DNA of 64,000 nt from an uncultured Planctomycetota bacterium (GTDB lineage: Bacteria; Planctomycetota; Planctomycetia; Isosphaerales; Isosphaeraceae). The notes under the pieces were generated by a model. It searched no databases, was not told the origin of the DNA, and worked only from the letters and a program-made list of their open reading frames with translations. This document shows, in pieces, positions 48,808 to 61,608 of this stretch. The stretch's first letter is position 1, and each line of letters opens with the position of its first letter. The translations under genes and the position numbers were made by a program. Location of the stretch: positions 224,001 through 288,000 of the forward strand of contig CAWJTV010000005.1 in the NCBI GenBank assembly GCA_963845755.1. The letters are read 5' to 3'.

Positions 48808-49390
48808 TCCGAGAGTACGTGGCGCCGTCCCGGCCGGCCCTCCAGACCTCGCCGTTCGGAGAGTGCCGGCAATGCGCCGCAACCATCGCGGCGCCATCGT
48901 TCCGTCGTCGATCCGCGCCCACCTCGACCGATGAGTGCCTCTCCATGAAGAGGGACCGGTAATATCGCGTCCCGAAAATAATCTGCAAGTCTTTAAATCA
49001 TCAATAGTTCGGTGGCGTTCCTCCCTGTCTGCAGCCGACGCAGATCTCAGGTAGGACGCCTCCCCTGTCGCCTCTCGCGGAAGAAAAGGGCGGTAATTCG
49101 GATTCACGTCTGATTCAGGTCACTTCATCTGATTCATGCACGTCCTGGATCGTCCGCTGCGCCCGTCCTACGACGCGATCGAAGGACGTTCCGCTGCTTA
49201 GCAGGACGATTCTTTGGGAATTACCGGATTTGAGGAGATTACCGAATCCATTGATGGAACCGAAAGAACTTGTTGAGAAGGCTAGACAAGGACGCCATTT
49301 TTTCTTATGAAGTAGGGGCGGAATCCCGTTGCAATTGTCCGGCGACAGCGGCAAACTGAAAATCTTGTTCATCCTTCGTAATCAGATGGT

Positions 49391-49779
49391 CTGTCAGGGG
49401 TCGTGTGACGGTGGGAGCGTCTTTGCGACCTCTGAGCGTTCTTCCGAAGGAGGAAGGCGGTACTGGTAGAGGCTACCCGGGACGCGGAGTTGCTGATGTG
49501 CGGAGACGTATGTTCCGGGAGAGGTGACCTCTGACACCCAATCCACCGCCTGCTGACAGGCGGCCGTAGTCGAGGATCCAGGGCAGCCCACGGGCGTTTG
49601 TCCTAGGCTGTAGACGAGCTTCTGACGGATCGGGACGCCCCGTCCGTCGGGTGACACCCATGCAGGGTGGAGGCAACTGATCGAGCAACCGCCCGACCGC
49701 TGAACCGGTCGAACGGGACGATAGATGCGCGGAACTTTGCCGATGCGGGTGGCGGCGTCACGGCACGCCCGACTCGGCC
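49391..49779 (+). ncRNA. Candidate structured RNA (unknown class) in the leader of the giant gene
   Basis: Two multi-branched domains closed by long-range helices, with several G-U-compatible pairs on the + strand. No convincing CDS. Details under findings. Confidence 0.5.
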
Positions 49780-49879
49780 CGGGAACAGAGAGCCAAGTTA
49801 CCACCATACGCTAACGGGAATTCGGGTCCACGTCTGATCCAGGATCCGTCGTCTGATTCATACAACACGGAGAATCCTC

Positions 49880-52800
49880 ATGTCCACTCGCAAGCGGTCC
49901 CTGCGCGTCCCGGTTGCCGCTGAGACGATCGGCGCGACCGATCCTGGAAGGCCTGGAAATCCGATTGACGCTCTCGACACTACCGGTCCCCGTCGGCGCA
50001 AACCCCTCGCCAGTAGGGCCGGTGGGTACTCCATCGCCCAATCCTGGCACCTCCACGCTCACCCCCAATCCGAATCAGACGGACGCCATCAAGCCGACGG
50101 TCTTGGTGTACCATGCGCCGGGGTCTTATCCCGCGGGGGACGTTCCGGGCCCCGCCGGAATCTTGCCCTACGATAACGGCGACGCAACGCCGGCCGGGGT
50201 CGGCTACTCACCCCAGCAGATTCGTGCCGCCTACGGGGTCAACAATATCTTCTTCGGATCGACGCAGGGTGAAGGTCAGGGAATGACCATCGCCATTGTT
50301 GACGCGTTCGACAACCCCGACATTGTGAACACGGGTTCAGCGACATTCGCTACTAGCGATCTGGGCGTCTACGATTCGACGTTCGGGTTGCCGGATCCGC
50401 CCAGCCTCACCAAGGTGGGCCAGACCGGCGGGGCACCGCCGACTGCGACCGATCCGACGGGCAGTTGGGAGGTCGAGGAGGCGCTGGACGTGGAGATGGT
50501 GCACACCATCGCGCCGCTGGCCAATATCGTCCTGGTCGAGGCGAATGACTCGACCCAATTATACACGGCGGATGCGTATGCGGCGACGATCGCCCCGGTG
50601 GTTTCCAATAGTTGGGGCGGCGGTGAATTCACGGGCGAACAGACGAACGATGCGACCTTCACCGTCCCGAATGTGACGTTCCTCTTCTCGACGGGCGATA
50701 GCGGTGCTCCGGGCGGATACCCGGCCTATTCGCCCGACGTGGTCGCTGTCGGCGGCACCAGCCTGTACGAGAACGCGTCCAACAACGTGACGTACGAATC
50801 GGCTTGGTCGTCGTTCGCCGCTCTGGGCGGGACCATTGGGGGCGCCGGCGGCGGTGGAACCAGCCAGCTCGAACCCGAGCCGTCGTTCCAGCAGGGTGTC
50901 CAGAACACAGGATCCCGTCAGATCCCCGACGTTTCATCGAACGCCGACCCGGCCACAGGCGTCGCGGAGTACGACCTCTATAACGGCGGCTGGTTCCAGG
51001 TCGGCGGCACCAGCGAGGCTTGTCCGGTGTGGGCGGGCTACGTTGCGATCGCCGACCAGGGACGAGCGTTGATGGGTGGTTCTCCGCTCACCGGCTACAC
51101 CCAGACCTTGCCGGCCCTGTACAGTCTACCGTATTCCGATTTCAACGACGTCACGGTCGGTGACGACCAATCCACGAACTACTCGTTCGACCAGTTCGCA
51201 TTCGGCGTAGACGCCCCGAACCCTCCGGCCAAGCCGGGTTACGATTTGGACACCGGCCTGGGTACGGCGAGAGCCGATCTGCTCGTGCCCGACCTGGCGG
51301 CGTTCGGTCTGGCCACGAAGATCGCCGTGACCACGCAGGCCCCCGCCAACGTCATCTCCGGCGACAGCTTCGGCCTGACCGCGACCGTGGAGGATCAAGA
51401 TGGACAGGTCGACTCGAACTTCAACGGCAACGTGACGTTGTCCCTCGCGGCCAATCCCGGCGGCACGACTTTCAACCCCGTCACCGTCGCGGCCGTCAAT
51501 GGTGTGGCCGTTTTCGACGGCCTGACCTTGAACCCGACCGACTCGGGTTACCAGTTCAAAGTCAGCGCGACCGTCAATGGTTCCGCGACCTCGGCGTCCT
51601 CGAGCCTGTTCGCGGTCGTATCGAACCCGACGATGTCGGCCGGCTCGTACTATCCGGCGACGAGCGACGCGAGTCTGCGCAGCGCCATCAGTCAGCGCCG
51701 ACAGCGACAACTTCTCAAGCAGCACCATCTACCTGGAGGCGGGGACGTATGGGCTGACCAACTCCGTGCTGGGGCAGTTGATCCTCCAGGATACGTCGGG
51801 GAGTGAAGCGAGTAAGACGATCACGATCGTCGGCCAGGGGGCGGGCGTGACGGTCATCGAACCATCCACCGACAAGGGATTTGGCGAACGCGTCTTCGAG
51901 ATCATCAGCCAGTCGGGGGCGAGCCTGACGGTGAACTTCCAGAACTTGACGATCGCCGGGGGCTACGCTGCCAACGGCGGCATCCTCGGCGGCAACACCG
52001 CTCTGGGTGGCGGCCTGTTGATCGATGGCGGCACGGTCTCGATGACGAATGTGGATCTCGTTCGACAACCGCGCCTCAAGGCACCCTTGGAGCAGCCGGC
52101 GCTAAGGGTCAAAAGGGCCAACCCGGTCCAACGGGCCAAGCGGGAGGCGCCGCGGCCGGTGGCGCGTTCTACCTGGCCGGTGGTACGCTGCACCTGAACA
52201 ACACGGTGATCAGCCAGAATATCGCCTGGGGAGGCCACGGCGGCACCGGCGGCTTCGGGGGAGCTGGCTTCCAGCGCGGCGGCAACGGAGGTGCGGGCGG
52301 AAACGCATCCGGCGGCGCCGGTTATGTGCTCAGTGGCTCGGTTTCCGGCAGTAGCAACCAGTTCGTTTCGAATGCCGTCCTCGGAGGCCGCGGCGGTTCG
52401 GGCGGGACCGGAGGGACTGGTGCTCCGTCGATTCCGGGCGGCCGCGGCGGTAGCGGTGGGACGGGAGGATTGGCCTATGGCGCCGGACTGTTCGTTTCCG
52501 GCGGCAGCGTCGACCTGGGGACCACCAGTTTCAAGGGCAGCGTGGCCCTCGGAGGAGCGGGTGGATATGGGGCCGTCGAAGGTCACAGCAAGGCCCTGAC
52601 TTCCAACGTGCGCAGTGTCCTGGTCTTCCTCACCAGCGGCGGGGCCGGTGGGAATGGTGGCGACGCTGCCGGTGGTGGTGTCTATCTCTCCAGTGGCACC
52701 GTGAACGTGACCGGCGGCAACGCGGGTTCGGATATGGCCCAGGGCGGGTCGTTCGGGTACAGCGGTAATCTTGCATGGTATTACCTGGGCTTCACCTCCG

Positions 52801-55800
52801 GAGTCGGGCGTGGCGTGGCCGGCATCGCCGACGGTGGCGGCATGTTCGTCAACAGTGGATCGTTGACGTTGGGGAGCTATTCCTTGTCGGGTGACGTCGC
52901 GACTTTTGGCGGCGCGATCGCCAATGCGGCGGGTGGATCGGTAAAGGGCAGTTCCGTCCAACTCTCCGGCAACGTGGCCGATACCGGCGGAGCCGTGTTG
53001 AACTTCGGTACGTTTACTCTCAATGACGGAGACATCGGGGGCAATTCCGCCTCTGGCGGCGCTGGTGGCGTCTACAATGCCTCGAACGGCTCGCTCGATT
53101 TCACTTCAGTCGGCGTCTTCAACAACATTGCGAATTCGAGGTCCGGTGGCGGCATCGAGAACATTTCCGGGTCCGTGAAAATCAGCAATGGCGTCTTCTC
53201 GGGTAACACGGCGGAGCGGAGGGGCGGCGGCATCTACAGCTCCGGGGGCTCGTTGACCATCACCGGAGTCAACGAAGTCACCGACAACGCGGTGGAAGCG
53301 ACAGGGCCCGCTTCCTCGGTAACCGTCGGCTTCGGAGGTGGTATCGATGTGCAGGCCGGCAATGCCACGATCAGCGGCGCCACCATCTCCGGCAACTCTT
53401 CCGAGCTTGGCGGCGGCATTTACATCTCAGACGGTTCGGTGACGATCAGCAATGACACGATCTCGAGCAACAGCGCGCTCCTCGGCGGCGGCATCCAAAA
53501 CCTGGGGACGCTGACGATCAGCAATGTGACCATCACGGGAAACTCGGCGGGCACCATTGGCGGCGGGATCAACAATCCCGGACAGCTTACGATCAACGGC
53601 TCGACGATCTCGGACAACGTGGCGGGGTCCTCCGGCGGCGGTATCTACAATGCCGGCACGATCTCCGCCGATACCATTCAGGTCTCGGGCAACACCGCTG
53701 ATGATGGCGGCGGCGGCCTCTACAACGCGGGAACGGTCACGGTCAACACCGGCACGTTCTCGAACAACGTGTCACCCGGCGTCGGGACCGGCCGATCGGC
53801 TACGCCGGGACGAGGAGGCGGCATCCTCAACACGTCCACGCTCACCTTGGATGACGTCAACCTCACTCAGAACACCGCCGGCGCGGGCGGCGGCCTCTAT
53901 AATACCGGAGGCCAGGTGAAAGCCTCCAGGATCACCGTCTCCGACAATTCCGCGAATCTGGGCGACGGCGGCGGTATCTATTTCCACAACGGCACGCTCA
54001 CGTTCAAGCTGGGGCGTCTGGACGGCAACCAGGCCGCGGGGAGTGCCGTCAACGGATCGTACGGCCGCGGCGGTGGACTCTATCAGAACGGCGGCAAGAT
54101 CACGATCGCGGGGAGCACGTCCGCCGCGAGCAATACGTTGGGCGTTGGGAGCATCGTGGATAATTCCGCGGGGCAAGGCGGCGGCATCTACCTCTTCGGC
54201 GGCTCGCTGACGCTCAGCTTCGCACATCTCGCGAAGAACTCCGCAGTCCAGTCCGGCGGCGCCATCGACAACGGCGGCACCTTGCTGCTCGCGAACTCCT
54301 TTGTCTTCAGCAACACGGCGAGCATCGATGGCGGCGGCATCGAGAACGCGATCTCGCTGAGCGTGTTGACGATCAATAACTCGACACTCTGGAACAATGA
54401 CGCCGGTAGCGAAGGGGGTACTCTTCGCAACCTCGGCCAGGCCACAGCGACCATTAACACCAGCACGATCAAGGACAGCTCCGCGAGCTTGGGTGGCGCC
54501 ATCGCGAATACGGGGACGTTGACGGTCAGCGGCAGCACGATCGCCTCCAGTTCGGCGTCCCAGTTCGGCGGCGGCATCTACGACGACCTCACCGGAGTGA
54601 TGAATCTGACGAACTCCACCATCGCTGCGAATACCGCCCAGGCCGGCGGCGGCGGAGTCTACTCCCAGGGCACGTTGCAGGCCGTGAACGTCACGATCGC
54701 CGAGAACCTCATCAATGGAGGTGACGGAGGCGGGTTGAACGTCGCAGGTGGATCGGCCAAGGTCTACAACTCGATCATCGATTCCAACACATCTGGCGGG
54801 GGGACGGACCTCGCCGGCAATCTGGCCAACGCCAGCAGGAACAACCTGATCGGGGTCCCCAACGCGGACCTGGGTCCCCTGGCGAATAACGGTGGCCCGA
54901 CTCAGACGATCGCCCTGCTGGCAGGCAGTCCGGCCATCGACGGGGGATCGAGCTCCATCGCCGGTGTGATCGTGCCGACTAGCGACCAGCGTGGTGCCGT
55001 CCGTGGAGGACAGGCCAATGCCGTCAACGCCGGGTCGATTGTGGACATCGGTGCCTACGAGGCCAGCTCGGCCTTCTTGATCACCTCCGCAGCCGATTCG
55101 TTCCAGATTTCCGGCACGCTACGCCTGGGCATGAACTGGGCGGCGATCAGCGACAACTTCAATCCCGAGAACCTGTCCCCGTCTCCGACCGCCAACGCTC
55201 CCAATACCCTCGTTTTCGCCACCAACGGGACGTTCTCCACAGCCCAGACGATCACGCTGACGCTCGGTACTCTGACAATCCCCACGACTCACGCGGTGGC
55301 GATCGATGGCCCCGGTAGCGGTCTGGTCACGATCAGCGGCGGGTGGGCGGTCCAGGTCGTCAACGTTCCCACGGGAGCGACGGCCACACTCGAAGGTATC
55401 ACCATCACGGGCGGGAACGCGACCGCCGGCGGTGGCGTCGGGAATGCCGGCACCTTGACCCTGATCAACACGAATCTTCAGGGCAACTCGGCCAGCGAGT
55501 CCGGCGGCGGGGTGGACAGCGTCGGCACCATCCACATCACCGGTGGCACGATCTCAGGCAACTCGGCGGGGACCGGTGGCGGCGTGCATAGCGTCGGCAG
55601 CCTCTACCTCGTCAACGCGAACATGAACAACAACTCGGCCTCTCTCGACGGCGGTGGCGTCGCGTATTCGGCCAGCAGCAGTGGCAGCGGAAGCCTGGTG
55701 ATGTCGGGCACGACATTCTCGGACAACATGGCCAATGAGGGCGGCGGGCTTTACATAGGCTCTGGTGCGGTAACGATCGCCGGAGGCACCCTCACCGGCA

Positions 55801-58800
55801 ACTCAGCCACCTTCTCGGATGGCGGCGCTGTGTATGTCTTTGGGGGCAACCTGGCGATCACGGGTGTAACCTTCTCGTCTAACGCGGCCGTGAATGGATC
55901 CGGCGGGGCGATCTACAATGCCGGTGGATCGCTGATCGCAACGAACCTCATCCTCGAGAACAACTCGGCAGGGGCCGGCGGGGCGTTAGCCAACACGGCA
56001 CAGGTCACGCTCGCCACCAGCACCATTGCCTCGAACTCGGCGAGCGTCAACGGTGGCGGCATCCTGAATACGGGATCGCTCCAAGTCTCCACGGTGAGCA
56101 TTTCTCAGAACACGGCCAGCGGTGGACCAGGCGGTGGCATCGACAACTTCGGGACCCTCTCGGTCGAAGACAGCACGATCGCCTACAATTCGGCCAGCAC
56201 GATTGGTGGTGGCATCTCCGACATCGGCACGGCCGTGGACAACTTGAGCAACTCCACGATCGCGGGCAATTTCGGCCAGGGCGGCGGCGGCGGCATCTAT
56301 ACACAGGGCACGCTGACGTCAGTCAACGTTACGATCGCCAACAATACGATCAACCAGGGTCAGGGCGGCGGGGTCTATGTTGACCCGAGCGCCACGGCCG
56401 CACTCTACAACACGATCGTCGATTCGAACACGCCCAGTGGGTCCGACCTCTCCGGCACGTTGTCAGGCACGAGCTCGAACAACCTGATCGGCGACCCCAA
56501 TGCGGACCTCGGTCCCTTGACGAACAACGGCGGCACGACCCTGACCATCGCCCTCGGGCAAGGCAGCGACGCCATTGACACGGGAGCCAACACGATCGCC
56601 GGCGTGACCGTGCCGACTACCGACCAGCGCGGCGCCCTGCGCGGCGCGTTGGGGATCAACGCCGGATCGTTGGTAGACATCGGAGCCTATGAGGCCAGCT
56701 CTTCTTACCAGGTCGCCACCGCGGCCGACACCACCGAAACCGGGACCCTGCGTACCGGCGTCGGCTGGGCCAATGTCAGCTTCAACGACAATCCCGAGAA
56801 CATCGCCAGCCCGGCCCCCAACACAGTCCAGATCATCACGAGCCTACCGATCACCCTGTCGCCGGCCCTCGGCACTCTGCAGTTCTCGAATACCGGTACG
56901 GCGGAGGAGATCGACAACGTGGGTAGGGGCCTGGCCGTGATCAGCGGCAATGGCGCGGTCGGGGTCTTGCAGGTGAACCAGGGTGTGACCGTGACCCTCA
57001 CCGACCTGGAGATTACAGCCGGCATGGCCACTACGGGCGGCGGGATCGAGAATGACGGCTCGCTCACGCTCAACTCGACGACTGTCACCGGCAACTCGGC
57101 CACCGAGGGTGGTGGCGGGGTGAACAACACGGGCTCGCTCACCCTCACCGGGGCGACGATCTCGGGGAATACGGCCACGTCGGGCGGAGGTGTCAACAAC
57201 ACGGGCACGCTGATGCTCAGTGACTCCGCCGCGATCACGGGCAATTCGGCCAGCGGAGCCGGCGGCGGCGTCCTCGACAACGGTACGCTCACCATTGACG
57301 GCTCTACGATCTCGCAGAACTCCGCCGGCTCAGGGGGTGGAGTCGACGTCGGCGGTTCCTTGACCGCGACCAACTCGACCATCTCGGGTAACTCGGCCGC
57401 CCTCAGTGGTGGCGGGGTGGGCGTCGCATTTACGGGCACGTTCATCGTTTCCAATTCGACCATTTCGGGCAATTCCGCCGCAGCCGACGGCGGCGGGATC
57501 GATAGCGCGGGTCTTGTGACACTGGGACACTCGACCGCGATCACGAACAATTCAGCCGGCGGAGTCGGTGGCGGCCTGAACATCGAGCCGGGCGGTTCGG
57601 GTACGGCGTCCTACTCGACCCTGTCAGGGAATACCGCGACGACAGGCGGCGGAATCGACAACAGCGGCGGGCTCACGATCTCGATCTCGAATATTCAATC
57701 GAATGTGGCCACGGGCTCCGGTGGTGGCCTCAATGTTGAGGTTGGCGGCACGGTGACGCTCACCGATTTGACCGTGAGCGGGAATCAGGCGGGCGGTTCC
57801 GGCGGCGGGCTCTCCAACGCCGGCACTGCGACCGTTACCAATGCAACCATCGCCGGCAATTCGGGCAGCAGCGCGGGCGGGATCCTCAACACAGGAACGC
57901 TCACGGCGATCAACGCGACGATCGCCGAGAATACCATTTCGAGCAGCGGCACCGGCGGTGGCCTCTATGCCCAACTGGGGACTGCCACCTTGTACAACAC
58001 GATCGTCGCCACGAACACCGCCGGCACCAGCACGGCCAGTAATGCCGCCGGCTCGCTGTCGCAAATCAGTGCAGACAACTTGTTCGGCAAGGGAGGCGCC
58101 GGCGGGCTGACGACATTCGATAACAATCAAATCAATGTCGCGAACCCGCTCCTGGGTACGCTGTCGAATAACGGCGGGCCATCTCCTCTCGCAGGACAGC
58201 CGATCCTGAGCCTCGCTCTACTCGCCGGAAGCCCCGCGATCGACGCCGGAAGCAGCACCATCCCCGGAGTGAGCATCCCGAATACGGACCAGCGCGGGGC
58301 GCTGCGCGGCCCGGCAGGGCTCGACGCCGGGTCGGCGGTCGACATCGGGGCGTACGAGGCCAGTTCCTCATACCTCGTCACCACCACCAGCGACTCGACC
58401 GATATGGGGACCATCCGCGCGGGTCTTGGTGGATGGGCCGGCGCCAGTACCAACAACAATCCGGAGGCGCTCGCGGCCGCCCAGGCCAACAATGGGATCG
58501 CCCCGGCGAACACGATGGTCTTCGACGAAACTGGAGCCTTCGCGACACCTCAGACGATCACGCTCTCATCCACTCTCGGCCCTCTCATTCTGTCGAATTC
58601 CGCTACGCCGGAAGCGATCGACGGCACGGCCTCGAACGGTCTGACGATCAGTGGTGGTGGAGCGGTCGGCGTGATCACGGTCGACGCGAATACGACGGCG
58701 AACCTGATTGGCCTGACGATCACCGGCGGCAACTCGACGACCGGAGGCGCCATCAACAATCAGGGCCATTTGCTCACGATCATCAATTCGACCGTCAGCG

Positions 58801-61054
58801 GCAACTCGGCGACCATGGGCGGAGCCATCGATAATTCGGGCACATTAGCCCTCAGCAGCTCCACCTTCTATAACAATGCCGCCAATCAGGATGGTGGCGC
58901 CATCGACAATGAATCCACCGGCGTACTCACCGCCACGAATGTGACGATCGCCGACAATACGGCCTCCGAGGGTGGCGGCATCTTCAACAACCCCGGCGGT
59001 ACGATGACGGTTAACACCACGACGATCGCCATTAACAGCTCCGGTGACCGCGGGACTGGCGGCGGCCTGAATGCATCCGCGGGCGCTAGCACCACCTTGT
59101 ACAACACAATCGTCGCGCAGAACACCGATAGTGGCGGTTCGGCCGACGACGTGGCCGGCACGCTCAAGTCGAGCAGCTCAGGGAACATGTTCGGCACCGG
59201 CGGCAGCGGCGGGCTGACCGCCAGCGCGAATCTGATTAATGTTGCAAACCCCGGACTTAGTACATTGTCGAACAATGGCGGGGTGACCGAGACCATCCCG
59301 TTGATGACGGGCAGCCCAGCCATCGGCGCCGGCAGCTCGAGCCTTCCCGGAACACCCAACGTTGACCAGCGTGGGGCGGTCCGCGGAGTCGGCGATGTCT
59401 CACCCGTCACGGCCATCGATGCGGGGGCCTACGAGGTCAGCTCGTCCTATTTGGTCACGAGTCCTGCCGACTCTCTCGTTCCCGGGACGCTTCGAGCCGC
59501 CGTCGCCTGGGCCGATACCAACGCCGGAACGACGCCGATCAACATCCTCTTCGATACGGCAGGATTGTTCAGCCGGGCGCAGACCATCACTCTGACTCTC
59601 GGGACGTTGAGCCTGACCAACACCACGGCCGCGATCCACATCGACGGGACCGGCGTGAGCCTGTTGACCGTCAGCGGCAACGGCGCCTCCGGGATCTTCT
59701 CAATCGCGCCAGGTGTGACGGCCGATTTCACGGAGCTATCGATGATCGATGGCTCGGCCGCAGCCTCCGGCGGCGCCATCAGCAACGCGGGGAACCTGAC
59801 GGTCACCAACGCGACACTGGCGGACAACGTGGCCCTGGCGGGCTCCGGCGCCGGCATCTACAACACCGGGTCGCTCGTCGTCACCGACAGCGCGTTCTCG
59901 AAGAATGCCGCCGACTACTATGGCGGTGCGATCTACAACAATGGAGGCACGACATCCATCTCCGGATCGACCTTCGACGGGAATTCGACCCTCTACGGAC
60001 TGGGTGGCGCCCTCGATAACCAGGGCGGTGCGCTGGCGGTCACAGGATCGACGTTCCAGGACAATTCCAGCTTCGAGGGTGGGGCCATCTTCAATCGGTC
60101 CGGCACGACGTCGATCACCGACACGACCATCATGAGCAACTCGGCCTACCAGGGCGGGGGCTTATTCAACGACGGTTCCGGAACGACCCTCGGAAGTATG
60201 ACGGTCACGGACAGCACGCTTGCCGGGAACTCGGCGTTCCAGGGTGGCGCGATATCCAACAATTTCGGCGGCACGATGTTGCTGACCGACAGCACCCTGG
60301 CGAGTAACTTGGCCAACCAGTACGGCGGCGCCATCGATAATGTCGGCAACTTGACGATCATCAGCGCCACGATCGCCTACAACGTCGTGGCACCCGGCGG
60401 CATCGCCGGTGGGATCGATGTCTATGCCGGCTCGACGGCGATATACGACTCCATTGTCGTCCTCAACACCGTCGGCAGTGTTGCCAGCGCACCCGCCAGC
60501 GACATTGTCGGCTCCGTCGTCGCCACGAGCTCGTACAACCTGATCGGCAGCGGGGGTCTGACTAACAAGATCAACAACAATCTGGTCGGCGTTCTCCTCC
60601 CCGGTCTCGCTCCCAGCCTGGCCAATAACGGCGGACCCACGGAAACCCTCGCGCTGCTCCCGAGTAGCCCCGCCATCGGCGCCGGGAGTGCGACGATCCC
60701 CGGTGTGATCGTGCCGTCTACCGATCAACGTGGCCAGACCCTGGACTCTCCGCCCGACCTCGGGGCGTACCAGACCGTGCCGATCCCCATCTCTCTCCGG
60801 GTATCAACGAAGAGTCCGGCCAGCGGCGCTGCCCAGGTCCTCACGACCATCGTGGCAGCCAACACGACGCCTACCGCCGTATCGACCACCCCGATCGTGA
60901 GCTCCCCCAACCCGTTCACGGCGAGGAAGCTCGGCGGCGAGCCCGCCGCCACAAGGTGGCCGCCGCGCCGCACACGACCGTCCATAAGTCCGAACATGCC
61001 GTCCCGGTCGCCCGGAAGACGCCGAAGGTCCGCATCGCCAAGCATCATGGGTAA
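49880..61054 (+). CDS. Giant secreted protein (~3,700 aa): S53 (sedolisin) peptidase + Ig-like segment + five beta-helix/choice-of-anchor-Q modules; at least four indels
   Basis: GGAG RBS; RPILEGLEIRLTLS N-terminal motif; EEALDVE, STGDSG and GGTS; GGGI.N repeats; five NNGG..AI..DQRG..GAY motifs. Frames join at ~49910, ~51690, ~52060-75 and ~60940; the corrected frame ends ..KVRIAKHHG* at 61054. Confidence 0.85.
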
Positions 61055-61067
61055 GACCCGCGGACGG

Positions 61068-61108
61068 GAGGGGAACTGGCACCGCGCTATTCAGGTGCCT
61101 CTTTCCCC
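61068..61108. repeat. Hairpin related to REP family B; probable terminator between convergent genes
   Basis: GGGAACTGGCACC ... GGTGCCTCTTTCCC immediately after the corrected stop of the giant gene. Confidence 0.6.
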
Positions 61109-61290
61109 TCTCGTCGGCCGATCTTTGCGGCCGCACACACCGTTAATCGCACGAGCCCAACATTCCGCGTTCGTCGCGAGTTGGCTTGCCTCTCAGGACC
61201 AAAAACTCGACCTCGAACCGCGAGTCTTGAGATGCTGCGGCACCGATAATCCTCATCTCGATCCCGATCGCTTCCGTTCGAGGATTCTCA

Positions 61291-61608
61291 CTATCGGCCG
61301 GAACTGCCTGAGTAGAGACCTGCCTCGATATCGCGGACGGTTCGCGCATCGGGATCGTGCCCGAGGACAAAGCTCCAGAGGGTCGAACGCCAACCATTGC
61401 AACCGGTATAATCCGGAGAGTCCCCGTACGTGCCATAGCCGGCATTGCCTACCGGTCGGCTCCAGGACGTGAGTGCGCCCGAAGAATCGTGGGCTAAATA
61501 CTGGGCATGGGCTTGGGGCATCGACTGCGGGGCCGGGAACACGGTGCAACTTTTGTTATCACAGCCGACTCCGCTGAGGGCCATCAATATAATCACGGCT
61601 CCCTGCAT
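61291..61608 (-). CDS. Small secreted/lipoprotein-like hypothetical protein
   Basis: GGAGAG RBS; MQGAVIILMALSGVGC; C-terminal WRSTLWSFVLGHDPD. Confidence 0.7.
   Translation of the reverse strand: MQGAVIILMALSGVGCDNKSCTVFPAPQSMPQAHAQYLAHDSSGALTSWSRPVGNAGYGTYGDSPDYTGCNGWRSTLWSFVLGHDPDARTVRDIEAGLYSGSSGR

Follow-up and report, generated by a model that had tools for sequence, protein, structure and literature searches.

Several bacterial RNAs, among them OLE, GOLLD and ROOL, are hundreds of nucleotides long with many predicted helices. Ribosomal RNA (rrn) operons have tandem promoter-like elements, which are followed by a long untranslated boxB-boxA leader. The processive antiterminator EAR (eps-associated RNA) of Bacillus subtilis is a structured cis RNA that precedes a long, surface-related transcription unit and sits between the genes of an operon (PMC7858274), and in Lactobacillaceae the 5′UTRs of the S-layer gene slpA, which lie behind two promoters, keep the transcript stable and leave the ribosome site exposed (PMC10221546). 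A leader in front of an 11-kb gene of an uncultured Isosphaeraceae bacterium shares features with each of these systems. Like the slpA leaders, it belongs to a surface-protein gene and combines tandem promoter-like elements and predicted stem-loops with the lack of a terminator, but it is ~515 nt long and multi-hairpin, and its 11-kb gene encodes a protease/β-helix protein rather than an established S-layer or abundant protein. It resembles EAR in being a cis structure ahead of a long surface-related unit, but has no match in Rfam and is placed before one gene, as its 5′ leader. From the rrn leader it differs in having no boxA-like match to the genome’s own rrn leader, and from OLE, GOLLD and ROOL, which it approaches in length and number of predicted helices, in having no Rfam match, a weak folding z-score, modest covariation, no terminator of its own and a constant association with one gene.

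The element is a real, uncatalogued and lineage-restricted leader with a predicted fold, larger and otherwise folded than first drawn. Within the window, that is, the whole 64,000-nt stretch of DNA that was analysed, an earlier note had drawn two branched domains at 49391-49779 and proposed an undescribed cis-regulatory RNA. An undescribed, cis-linked structured RNA of the plus strand in the giant-gene leader is supported; the leader lacks an Rfam match, is single copy and has a predicted promoter upstream of 49391. The limits have to be redrawn: the conserved unit covers approximately 49364-49879 (+; ~515 nt), and 49391-49779 is its variable middle and its least conserved part. Between this genome and the sister species of the same genus (g1; G001), 49391-49779 is 65% identical (254/389), while the 27 nt on its 5′ side are 93% and the 100 nt on its 3′ side 91% identical; the gap further upstream, at 49% identity between the two g1 species, amounts to alignment noise. 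The end of the element 100 nt before the ATG at 49880 is as claimed. On sequence grounds, the region is likely the mRNA 5′ leader of the giant gene. The gene on the 5′ side of the gap is conserved as well, being present in 116 of 121 genomes of the family, and encodes a 650-aa product without a Pfam or NCBIfam match.

No known RNA family is matched, in line with the earlier note, which recognised none: Rfam 15, including the models for riboswitches, tRNA, tmRNA, RNase P, SRP, introns, OLE/GOLLD/ROOL and EAR, gives no match in the window with a covariance-model score at or above gathering level. With relaxed filters the element yields a single 21-bit match to mir-422 on the minus strand, and four homologue loci yield one 22-bit match within a coding region, both at chance level. 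A MITE-like repeated DNA element is contradicted by the single copy per genome. No coding signal was found in any frame of ten leaders (codon log-odds ≤7 in 60/60 frames, with a gene threshold of 10), and a leader-peptide attenuator was rejected, there being no conserved upstream ORF and no upstream ATGs common to all genera, although very short peptides could escape this test. The leader contains no terminator-like site; runs of five or more U occur in 3/10 leaders at differing positions, and none occurs in this genome. A transcription-attenuating riboswitch or leader was likewise rejected, as a stem plus U-run terminator is absent.

A sigma70-type promoter is predicted at 49329-49357 (+), with the −35 box TTGCAA at 49329-34 and the −10 box CAAACT at 49352-57, from which transcription is predicted to start near 49363-49365. 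The earlier note had named a start downstream of 49779 as an outcome that would refute it; the predicted promoter lies upstream of 49391. The arrangement TTGCMW, 17 nt, CAARCT recurs in 10/10 homologues, in which the spacer sequence varies and its length is fixed, and TTGCAA and TAAACT boxes recur in the best promoter-like match before the tRNA genes of this genome; a strict consensus promoter scan did not have 49329-57 among its matches. The tRNA genes themselves lie in an array of ~40 on contig C41 and a cluster on C20, with tRNA-SeC on C4. Further upstream, at 49283-49311 (+), TAGACA and TATSAA are separated by 17-18 nt in 10/10 homologues and may constitute a second promoter-like or a UP/activator element. 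The spacer measures 18 nt in nine homologues and 17 nt in this assembly, where one short-read contig has an extra G at 49292 and thus a spacer of 18 nt. A sigma54 promoter was rejected because its spacing, judged by eye, is a poor match.

Among 121 Isosphaeraceae genomes, searches by DNA, by pattern and by covariance model agree on ten carriers, with one copy each, in three genera: both genomes of g1 (this genome and its sister), four of four in g60 and four of eight in g68, which amounts to few independent samples. The carriers score 110-175 bits with the leader model, and the next best match reaches 27 bits, at and below which matches were taken as chance. The model searches scored 20-26 candidates per genome, so that distant homologues can be missed, and one of the covariance models (R2) carries a 5′-half helix out of register. 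In a class-wide sample, model R1 detected the leader in 0/150 other genomes. A scan of metagenomes with the promoter motif gave no further homologue, and a second pattern gave 12 metagenomic matches, all in DNA of 28-42% GC and none with a model match; eight matches in GTDB contigs comprised seven known loci and one Cytophagales contig without a model match. All ten homologues span 507-530 nt from the predicted sigma70-type promoter to the start of the same giant gene. The length is thus kept although the sequence falls to ~50% identity between genera, and the middle of the leader can be aligned across genera while the upstream gap cannot. The earlier note had asked whether homologues precede giant secreted-protein genes; each of the ten copies stands directly before the ATG of the giant gene, whose product is likely secreted. 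In one carrier, G103, leader and giant gene lie 120 kb away from the upstream neighbour gene, which indicates that the leader travels with the downstream giant gene.

This linkage bears on another suggestion of the earlier note, an independent ncRNA that merely lies upstream of the gene, which is highly improbable. Its own predicted promoter and the multi-hairpin fold are what such an RNA would have, but no terminator separates it from the ATG and, in the nine genomes measured, the promoter motif stands at a constant 525-542 nt from the start codon, both of which argue against independence; moreover, the conservation continues unbroken into the ribosome site (91%), and the leader is never found away from the giant gene, with which it moved in G103.

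The giant gene (49880-61472, +) encodes an N-terminal motif that we take to be a planctomycete-type export motif, a sedolisin-like protease domain (E 1e-11), a β-helix (Beta_helix, matched in the window’s copy) and choice-of-anchor-Q repeats (E 1e-80), and from the N-terminal motif the protein is likely secreted. The 11-kb gene of the earlier note is therefore real; in this assembly it is split over three frames, as three collinear pieces with 55-67% identity to the homologue of G084, which is intact, its homologous ATG opening a single frame of 3623 aa. A short-read contig lacks the break at 51693, which thus looks like an assembly error, and together the single-base indels at 49292 and 51693 relative to short-read contigs imply that other frame breaks in the window may be errors as well. 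The same 2 nt are missing behind the ninth codon (49895-49915) in both g1 species, at a site beyond the reach of the short-read contigs, and this places the ATG out of frame, although the gene retains an open frame of 3088 codons. The frame around the ninth codon is kept in 6/8 other homologues, and G086 and G104 have other breaks nearby. The shared loss could be a long-read error common to both genomes, could reflect a TTG start at 49914, or could be overcome by a +1 frameshift; a motif-specific assembly error was rejected, as no 8-mer depletion was seen. Over 49880-51800, the protease domain is 54% identical to that of G084 in the sister species and 71% in this genome, and the two g1 species share 90% identity over the leader end with the first codons. 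The divergence of the one and the conservation of the other hint, at the level of sequence comparison, at an exchange of passengers behind a fixed leader. This genome contains at least 12 related protease-domain genes. In one 2100-aa paralogue (G000:C11 76600-78800, −), what looks by eye like a sigma70 promoter lies ~480 nt ahead of the ATG and the leader is unrelated to this one; of 46 genes that share the N-terminal motif, 19 follow upstream gaps of at least 500 nt in a crude gene map.

A processive antiterminator, or a loading site for a NusG paralogue or a Nus complex, would enable completion of so long a transcript, and the six non-G084 homologues with enough sequence all head genes of ~11 kb, as do those of G084 and of this genome. 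EAR provides a precedent for such a cis RNA (PMC7858274). The genome encodes Rho and one UpxY/RfaH-like NusG paralogue, but the latter lies on another contig (C38) and scores 72 bits against an UpxY cut-off of 100. Furthermore, no boxA is found, with 3-4 mismatches of 11 to the genome’s own rrn boxA-like 11-mer in 10/10 leaders, and ribosomes already protect the message of any single gene that is being translated. The leader model has no match upstream of 26 paralogues and 20 further related loci, among which are three genes with open frames of 3500-3900 codons, the start being locatable in one of the three, and in G015 the homologue at this locus is not preceded by such a leader. That related, equally long genes do without the RNA weakens antitermination, which we regard as doubtful. 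Neither the riboswitch nor the processive antiterminator envisaged in the earlier note is established by these data: there is no terminator or U-run and no boxA match, and the RNA is missing before genes that are homologous or of equal length.

The helices listed in that note are accurate as pairings (6/6 pairs checked have correct coordinates and 14/14 helices tested form at full length here). As a test of the fold, comparison of the single sequence with shuffles is barely beyond chance: the RNAfold z is −2.00 on the plus strand (3/100 shuffles as good) and −2.34 on the minus strand (2/100), no 120-nt window within 49391-49779 falls below −2.3 on either strand, and the ten leaders range from +0.1 to −2.3. 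The least biased test used RNAalifold on a sequence-only alignment with 61% mean identity and conservation-preserving column shuffles as controls. Here the plus strand reaches −40.7 compared with −22.5 ± 4.5 for the shuffles (0/40 as good), in contrast to −15.9 compared with −17.3 (22/40 as good) for the minus strand. Plus-strand windows 49416-49521, 49469-49581 and 49751-49864 beat 100/100 shuffles, whereas the other five on this strand and 8/8 on the minus strand do not. The assignment to the plus strand by the earlier note is hence corroborated, as the consensus fold beats shuffles on this strand only and uses G-U pairs.

Covariation at the level of pairs is only modest. The 5′ half has 81% of its cells paired, and 6/29 pairs there are changed on both sides, which is above shuffles (3/500), but the covariation score is not significant (reached by 80/500 shuffles). 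In the 3′ part, 89% of cells pair (0/500 shuffles), with two-sided pairs at chance level (2 observed, 2.1 in shuffles). A duplex scan across genera ranked the expected hairpins first, with seven high pairs, a number reached in 3/35 shuffles; its top pair, 49696/49711, lies in the variable middle. Six soil DNA runs gave short contigs of low depth. One contig of a close strain (depth 2, by eye) breaks the domain-1 closing helix of the earlier note at 49392 and its AGAGG/CCTCT at 49530, and that of another close strain (depth 2, by eye) has three stem changes, at 49672, 49767 and 49793, that retain pairing; as weak evidence, the two agree with the comparative fold.

These results also address the view that only the promoter, DNA operators and the ribosome site are selected and that the hairpins are chance pairing in GC-rich DNA. 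The weak single-sequence z-scores, the low conservation of 49391-49779 and the presence of the 3′ box also upstream of the promoter, where it is conserved and may act as DNA, speak for it, but the consensus fold appears on one strand only and makes use of G-U pairs, two-sided changes occur in helices P2, P4 and P5, and the middle of the leader, with its fixed spacing, is alignable across genera in a way that the upstream gap is not. Chance pairing is therefore improbable.

The two-domain architecture is not supported by the comparison, its closing helices being no better than random arms of the same span, and a chain of local hairpins is supported instead. RNAfold forms neither closing helix. 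That of domain 1 retains 4/7 pairs in the sister species and is near-full in 4/8 other-genus genomes (P 0.11); for domain 2, the inner part is found in 3/8 (random mean 4.8) and the outer part in 8/8 (random mean 4.9, P 0.13). Among the nested helices of the earlier note, 49456-61/49545-50 is found in 4/8 other-genus genomes (P 0.32), and 49476-83/49512-19 is full length in both g1 species and near-full in 0/8 others. The strands of these closing and nested helices are taken by the local helices 49418-23/49454-59 and 49546-52/49557-63.

The first element of the chain is P1, a predicted 5′-terminal hairpin (49371-49401, +), both base strands of which are nearly invariant and which RNAalifold forms by pairing 33-38/59-64. 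Its energy is −10 to −15 kcal/mol in the four g68 genomes and −1.5 to −7.4 in the other six, and in g1 its 3′ strand can pair alternatively with 49426-34. P2 (49418-49459, +) encloses hairpin P3 (49440-49453) and pairs in 58/60 cells, with two-sided changes in 2/6 columns in a hand-set register; it is present in 8/8 other-genus genomes (P 0.017, uncorrected). The P4 arm (49471-49525, +) ends in the tip hairpin P4b (49499-49510) with a GAGA loop, 47/50 cells pairing in the tip and 61/70 in the outer stem, and forms a rod in g1 and a branched structure in the other two genera. In place of the domain-1 closing helix, P5 (49546-49563, +) pairs in 64/70 cells with 5/7 columns two-sided, again in a hand-set register, and is formed by RNAfold. 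Altogether, 230/250 cells of P2, P4, P4b and P5 pair and 9/25 columns are two-sided, numbers for which the hand-set registers favour the model. Compared with random arms of the same span, P2, P5 and the 49398-404/49425-31 helix of the earlier note give P 0.02-0.03, uncorrected for 21 tests. The variable middle (49578-49730, +) contains about four hairpins (49580-605, a junction at 49618-674, and 49681-728), which recur as similar hairpins of differing sequence in most homologues and are not significant in the alignment-based test (13/100 and 20/100 shuffles as good). It is followed by the bulged hairpin P10 (49739-49778, +) and the small P11 (49780-96; broken in g1), with 82-90% of cells paired.

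The 3′ box (49822-49863, +) can be read as hairpins P12 and P13, in which 98% and 94% of cells pair, or alternatively as direct repeats spaced by 10-11 nt, and occurs in 12 instances. Behind it, the ribosome-binding site GGAG (49869-72) and the ATG (49880) lie within 49867-49882 (+), where A-N-GGAG is invariant in 10/10 leaders. The last 50 nt of the leader (49815-49864) are duplicated as a direct repeat at 49091-49140 (+), 80% identical and 724 nt apart, only in this genome and the sister species, so that the two copies flank promoter and leader and the upstream copy is outside the predicted transcript. The upstream copies of the two species are identical at 41/50 positions, compared with 46-49% identity in the flanks (P ~1e-6), and are closer to each other (37/42) than to the downstream copies (32-34/42), which suggests that they are under selection, perhaps as a DNA operator. 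From these comparisons, the upstream copy looks like a duplication relic still under selection, and the duplicated box suggests an added layer of DNA-level or protein-binding control. In the sister species, the upstream copy runs on into a decayed ribosome site and start codon. A wider 3′-box regulon was rejected, as no convincing third site exists in the genome (next PWM score 17, compared with 57 and 62). On C11, C24 and C35, intergenic short tandem repeats based on TTCATCC resemble part of the 5′ motif of the leader, which is probably a coincidence.

At both ends, motifs that are single-stranded or bulged hardly vary, which hints at a specific binding partner, something a passive stabiliser could do without. 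The leader may be a regulated switch, whose invariant motifs would be bound by a protein (e.g. a CsrA homologue), an sRNA or a metabolite so as to turn translation initiation or Rho-dependent termination on and off, a realistic possibility if not a probable one. The 5′ motif, the central GGUCGUG strand, which has two possible partners in g1, and the ANGGAG of the ribosome site are all invariant, and the last is found in 10/10 leaders when only 283 of 1000 other starts have an A two bases before GGAG. The genome has 14 CsrA-family genes, all above the Pfam cut-off, but ANGGA motifs are only mildly above shuffles (2-4 compared with 1.2-2.8). Good pairing between the 5′ end and the ribosome site is predicted in the four g68 genomes (top 3-5% of windows), but it is weak in the other six and lacks covariation (native −4.9, cross-species −5.4). 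Moreover, no conserved helix sequestering the ribosome site was found among the ten leaders, the leaders show no aptamer-like core whose junction nucleotides are conserved, and most riboswitches differ from the narrow range and variable middle of this leader. A bolder version, which we put forward tentatively and consider rather unlikely, is a new class of control RNA, in which a dedicated factor would recognise the invariant bulged hairpin at the 5′ end and the repeated 3′ box, and full-length expression of the 11 kb would be switched without an intrinsic terminator; a CsrA paralogue, a metabolite or the UpxY-like NusG paralogue could play this part, and the protease/adhesin passenger would be diverging faster.

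The best explanation, to which we give about an even chance, is a ligand-independent leader that, by analogy with the slpA leaders, would stabilise the 11-kb message and set its translation. It is directly supported by the homologues, the fixed position and length, the non-coding state and the consensus fold of the plus strand, and, as expected of a stabilising leader, the RNA combines a 5′UTR position with conserved sense-strand structure, the start site being predicted. Transcription would initiate at the sigma70-type promoter at 49329-57, and the RNA would fold co-transcriptionally into the 5′-terminal hairpin and the chain of local hairpins. P1 may protect the 5′ end of the mRNA, while the hairpins may hide Rho loading sites and thereby shield the untranslated RNA from decay and Rho, which is encoded in this genome. 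The nearly unpaired A/C-rich approach to GGAG, behind the 3′ box, would then set the use of the ribosome site. Given the lack of a terminator, control would act through decay, Rho or initiation. Against a passive leader, P1 is weak in 6/10 genomes; in addition, folding of the whole leader leaves GGAG mostly paired rather than exposed, with partners that differ between genomes.

Among listings and abstract openings that include few subscription papers, no paper on leader-based control in Isosphaeraceae was found, nor one linking Planctomycetes with boxA/antitermination or a NusG paralog. The main text of a 2026 preprint on intergenic clusters (10.64898/2026.10.21.760802) contains neither ‘Planctomyc’ nor ‘Isosphaer’, and its supplementary cluster tables may contain the motif. 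The locus now offers a delimited leader of 515 nt that can be aligned, together with a predicted promoter and helices open to testing, and its study would reveal by what means a cell governs a surface-protein gene of 11 kb. If a switch or an antiterminator is true, the leader would represent a new regulatory RNA class; if the passive stabiliser is true, it would be a lineage-restricted example of a known strategy.
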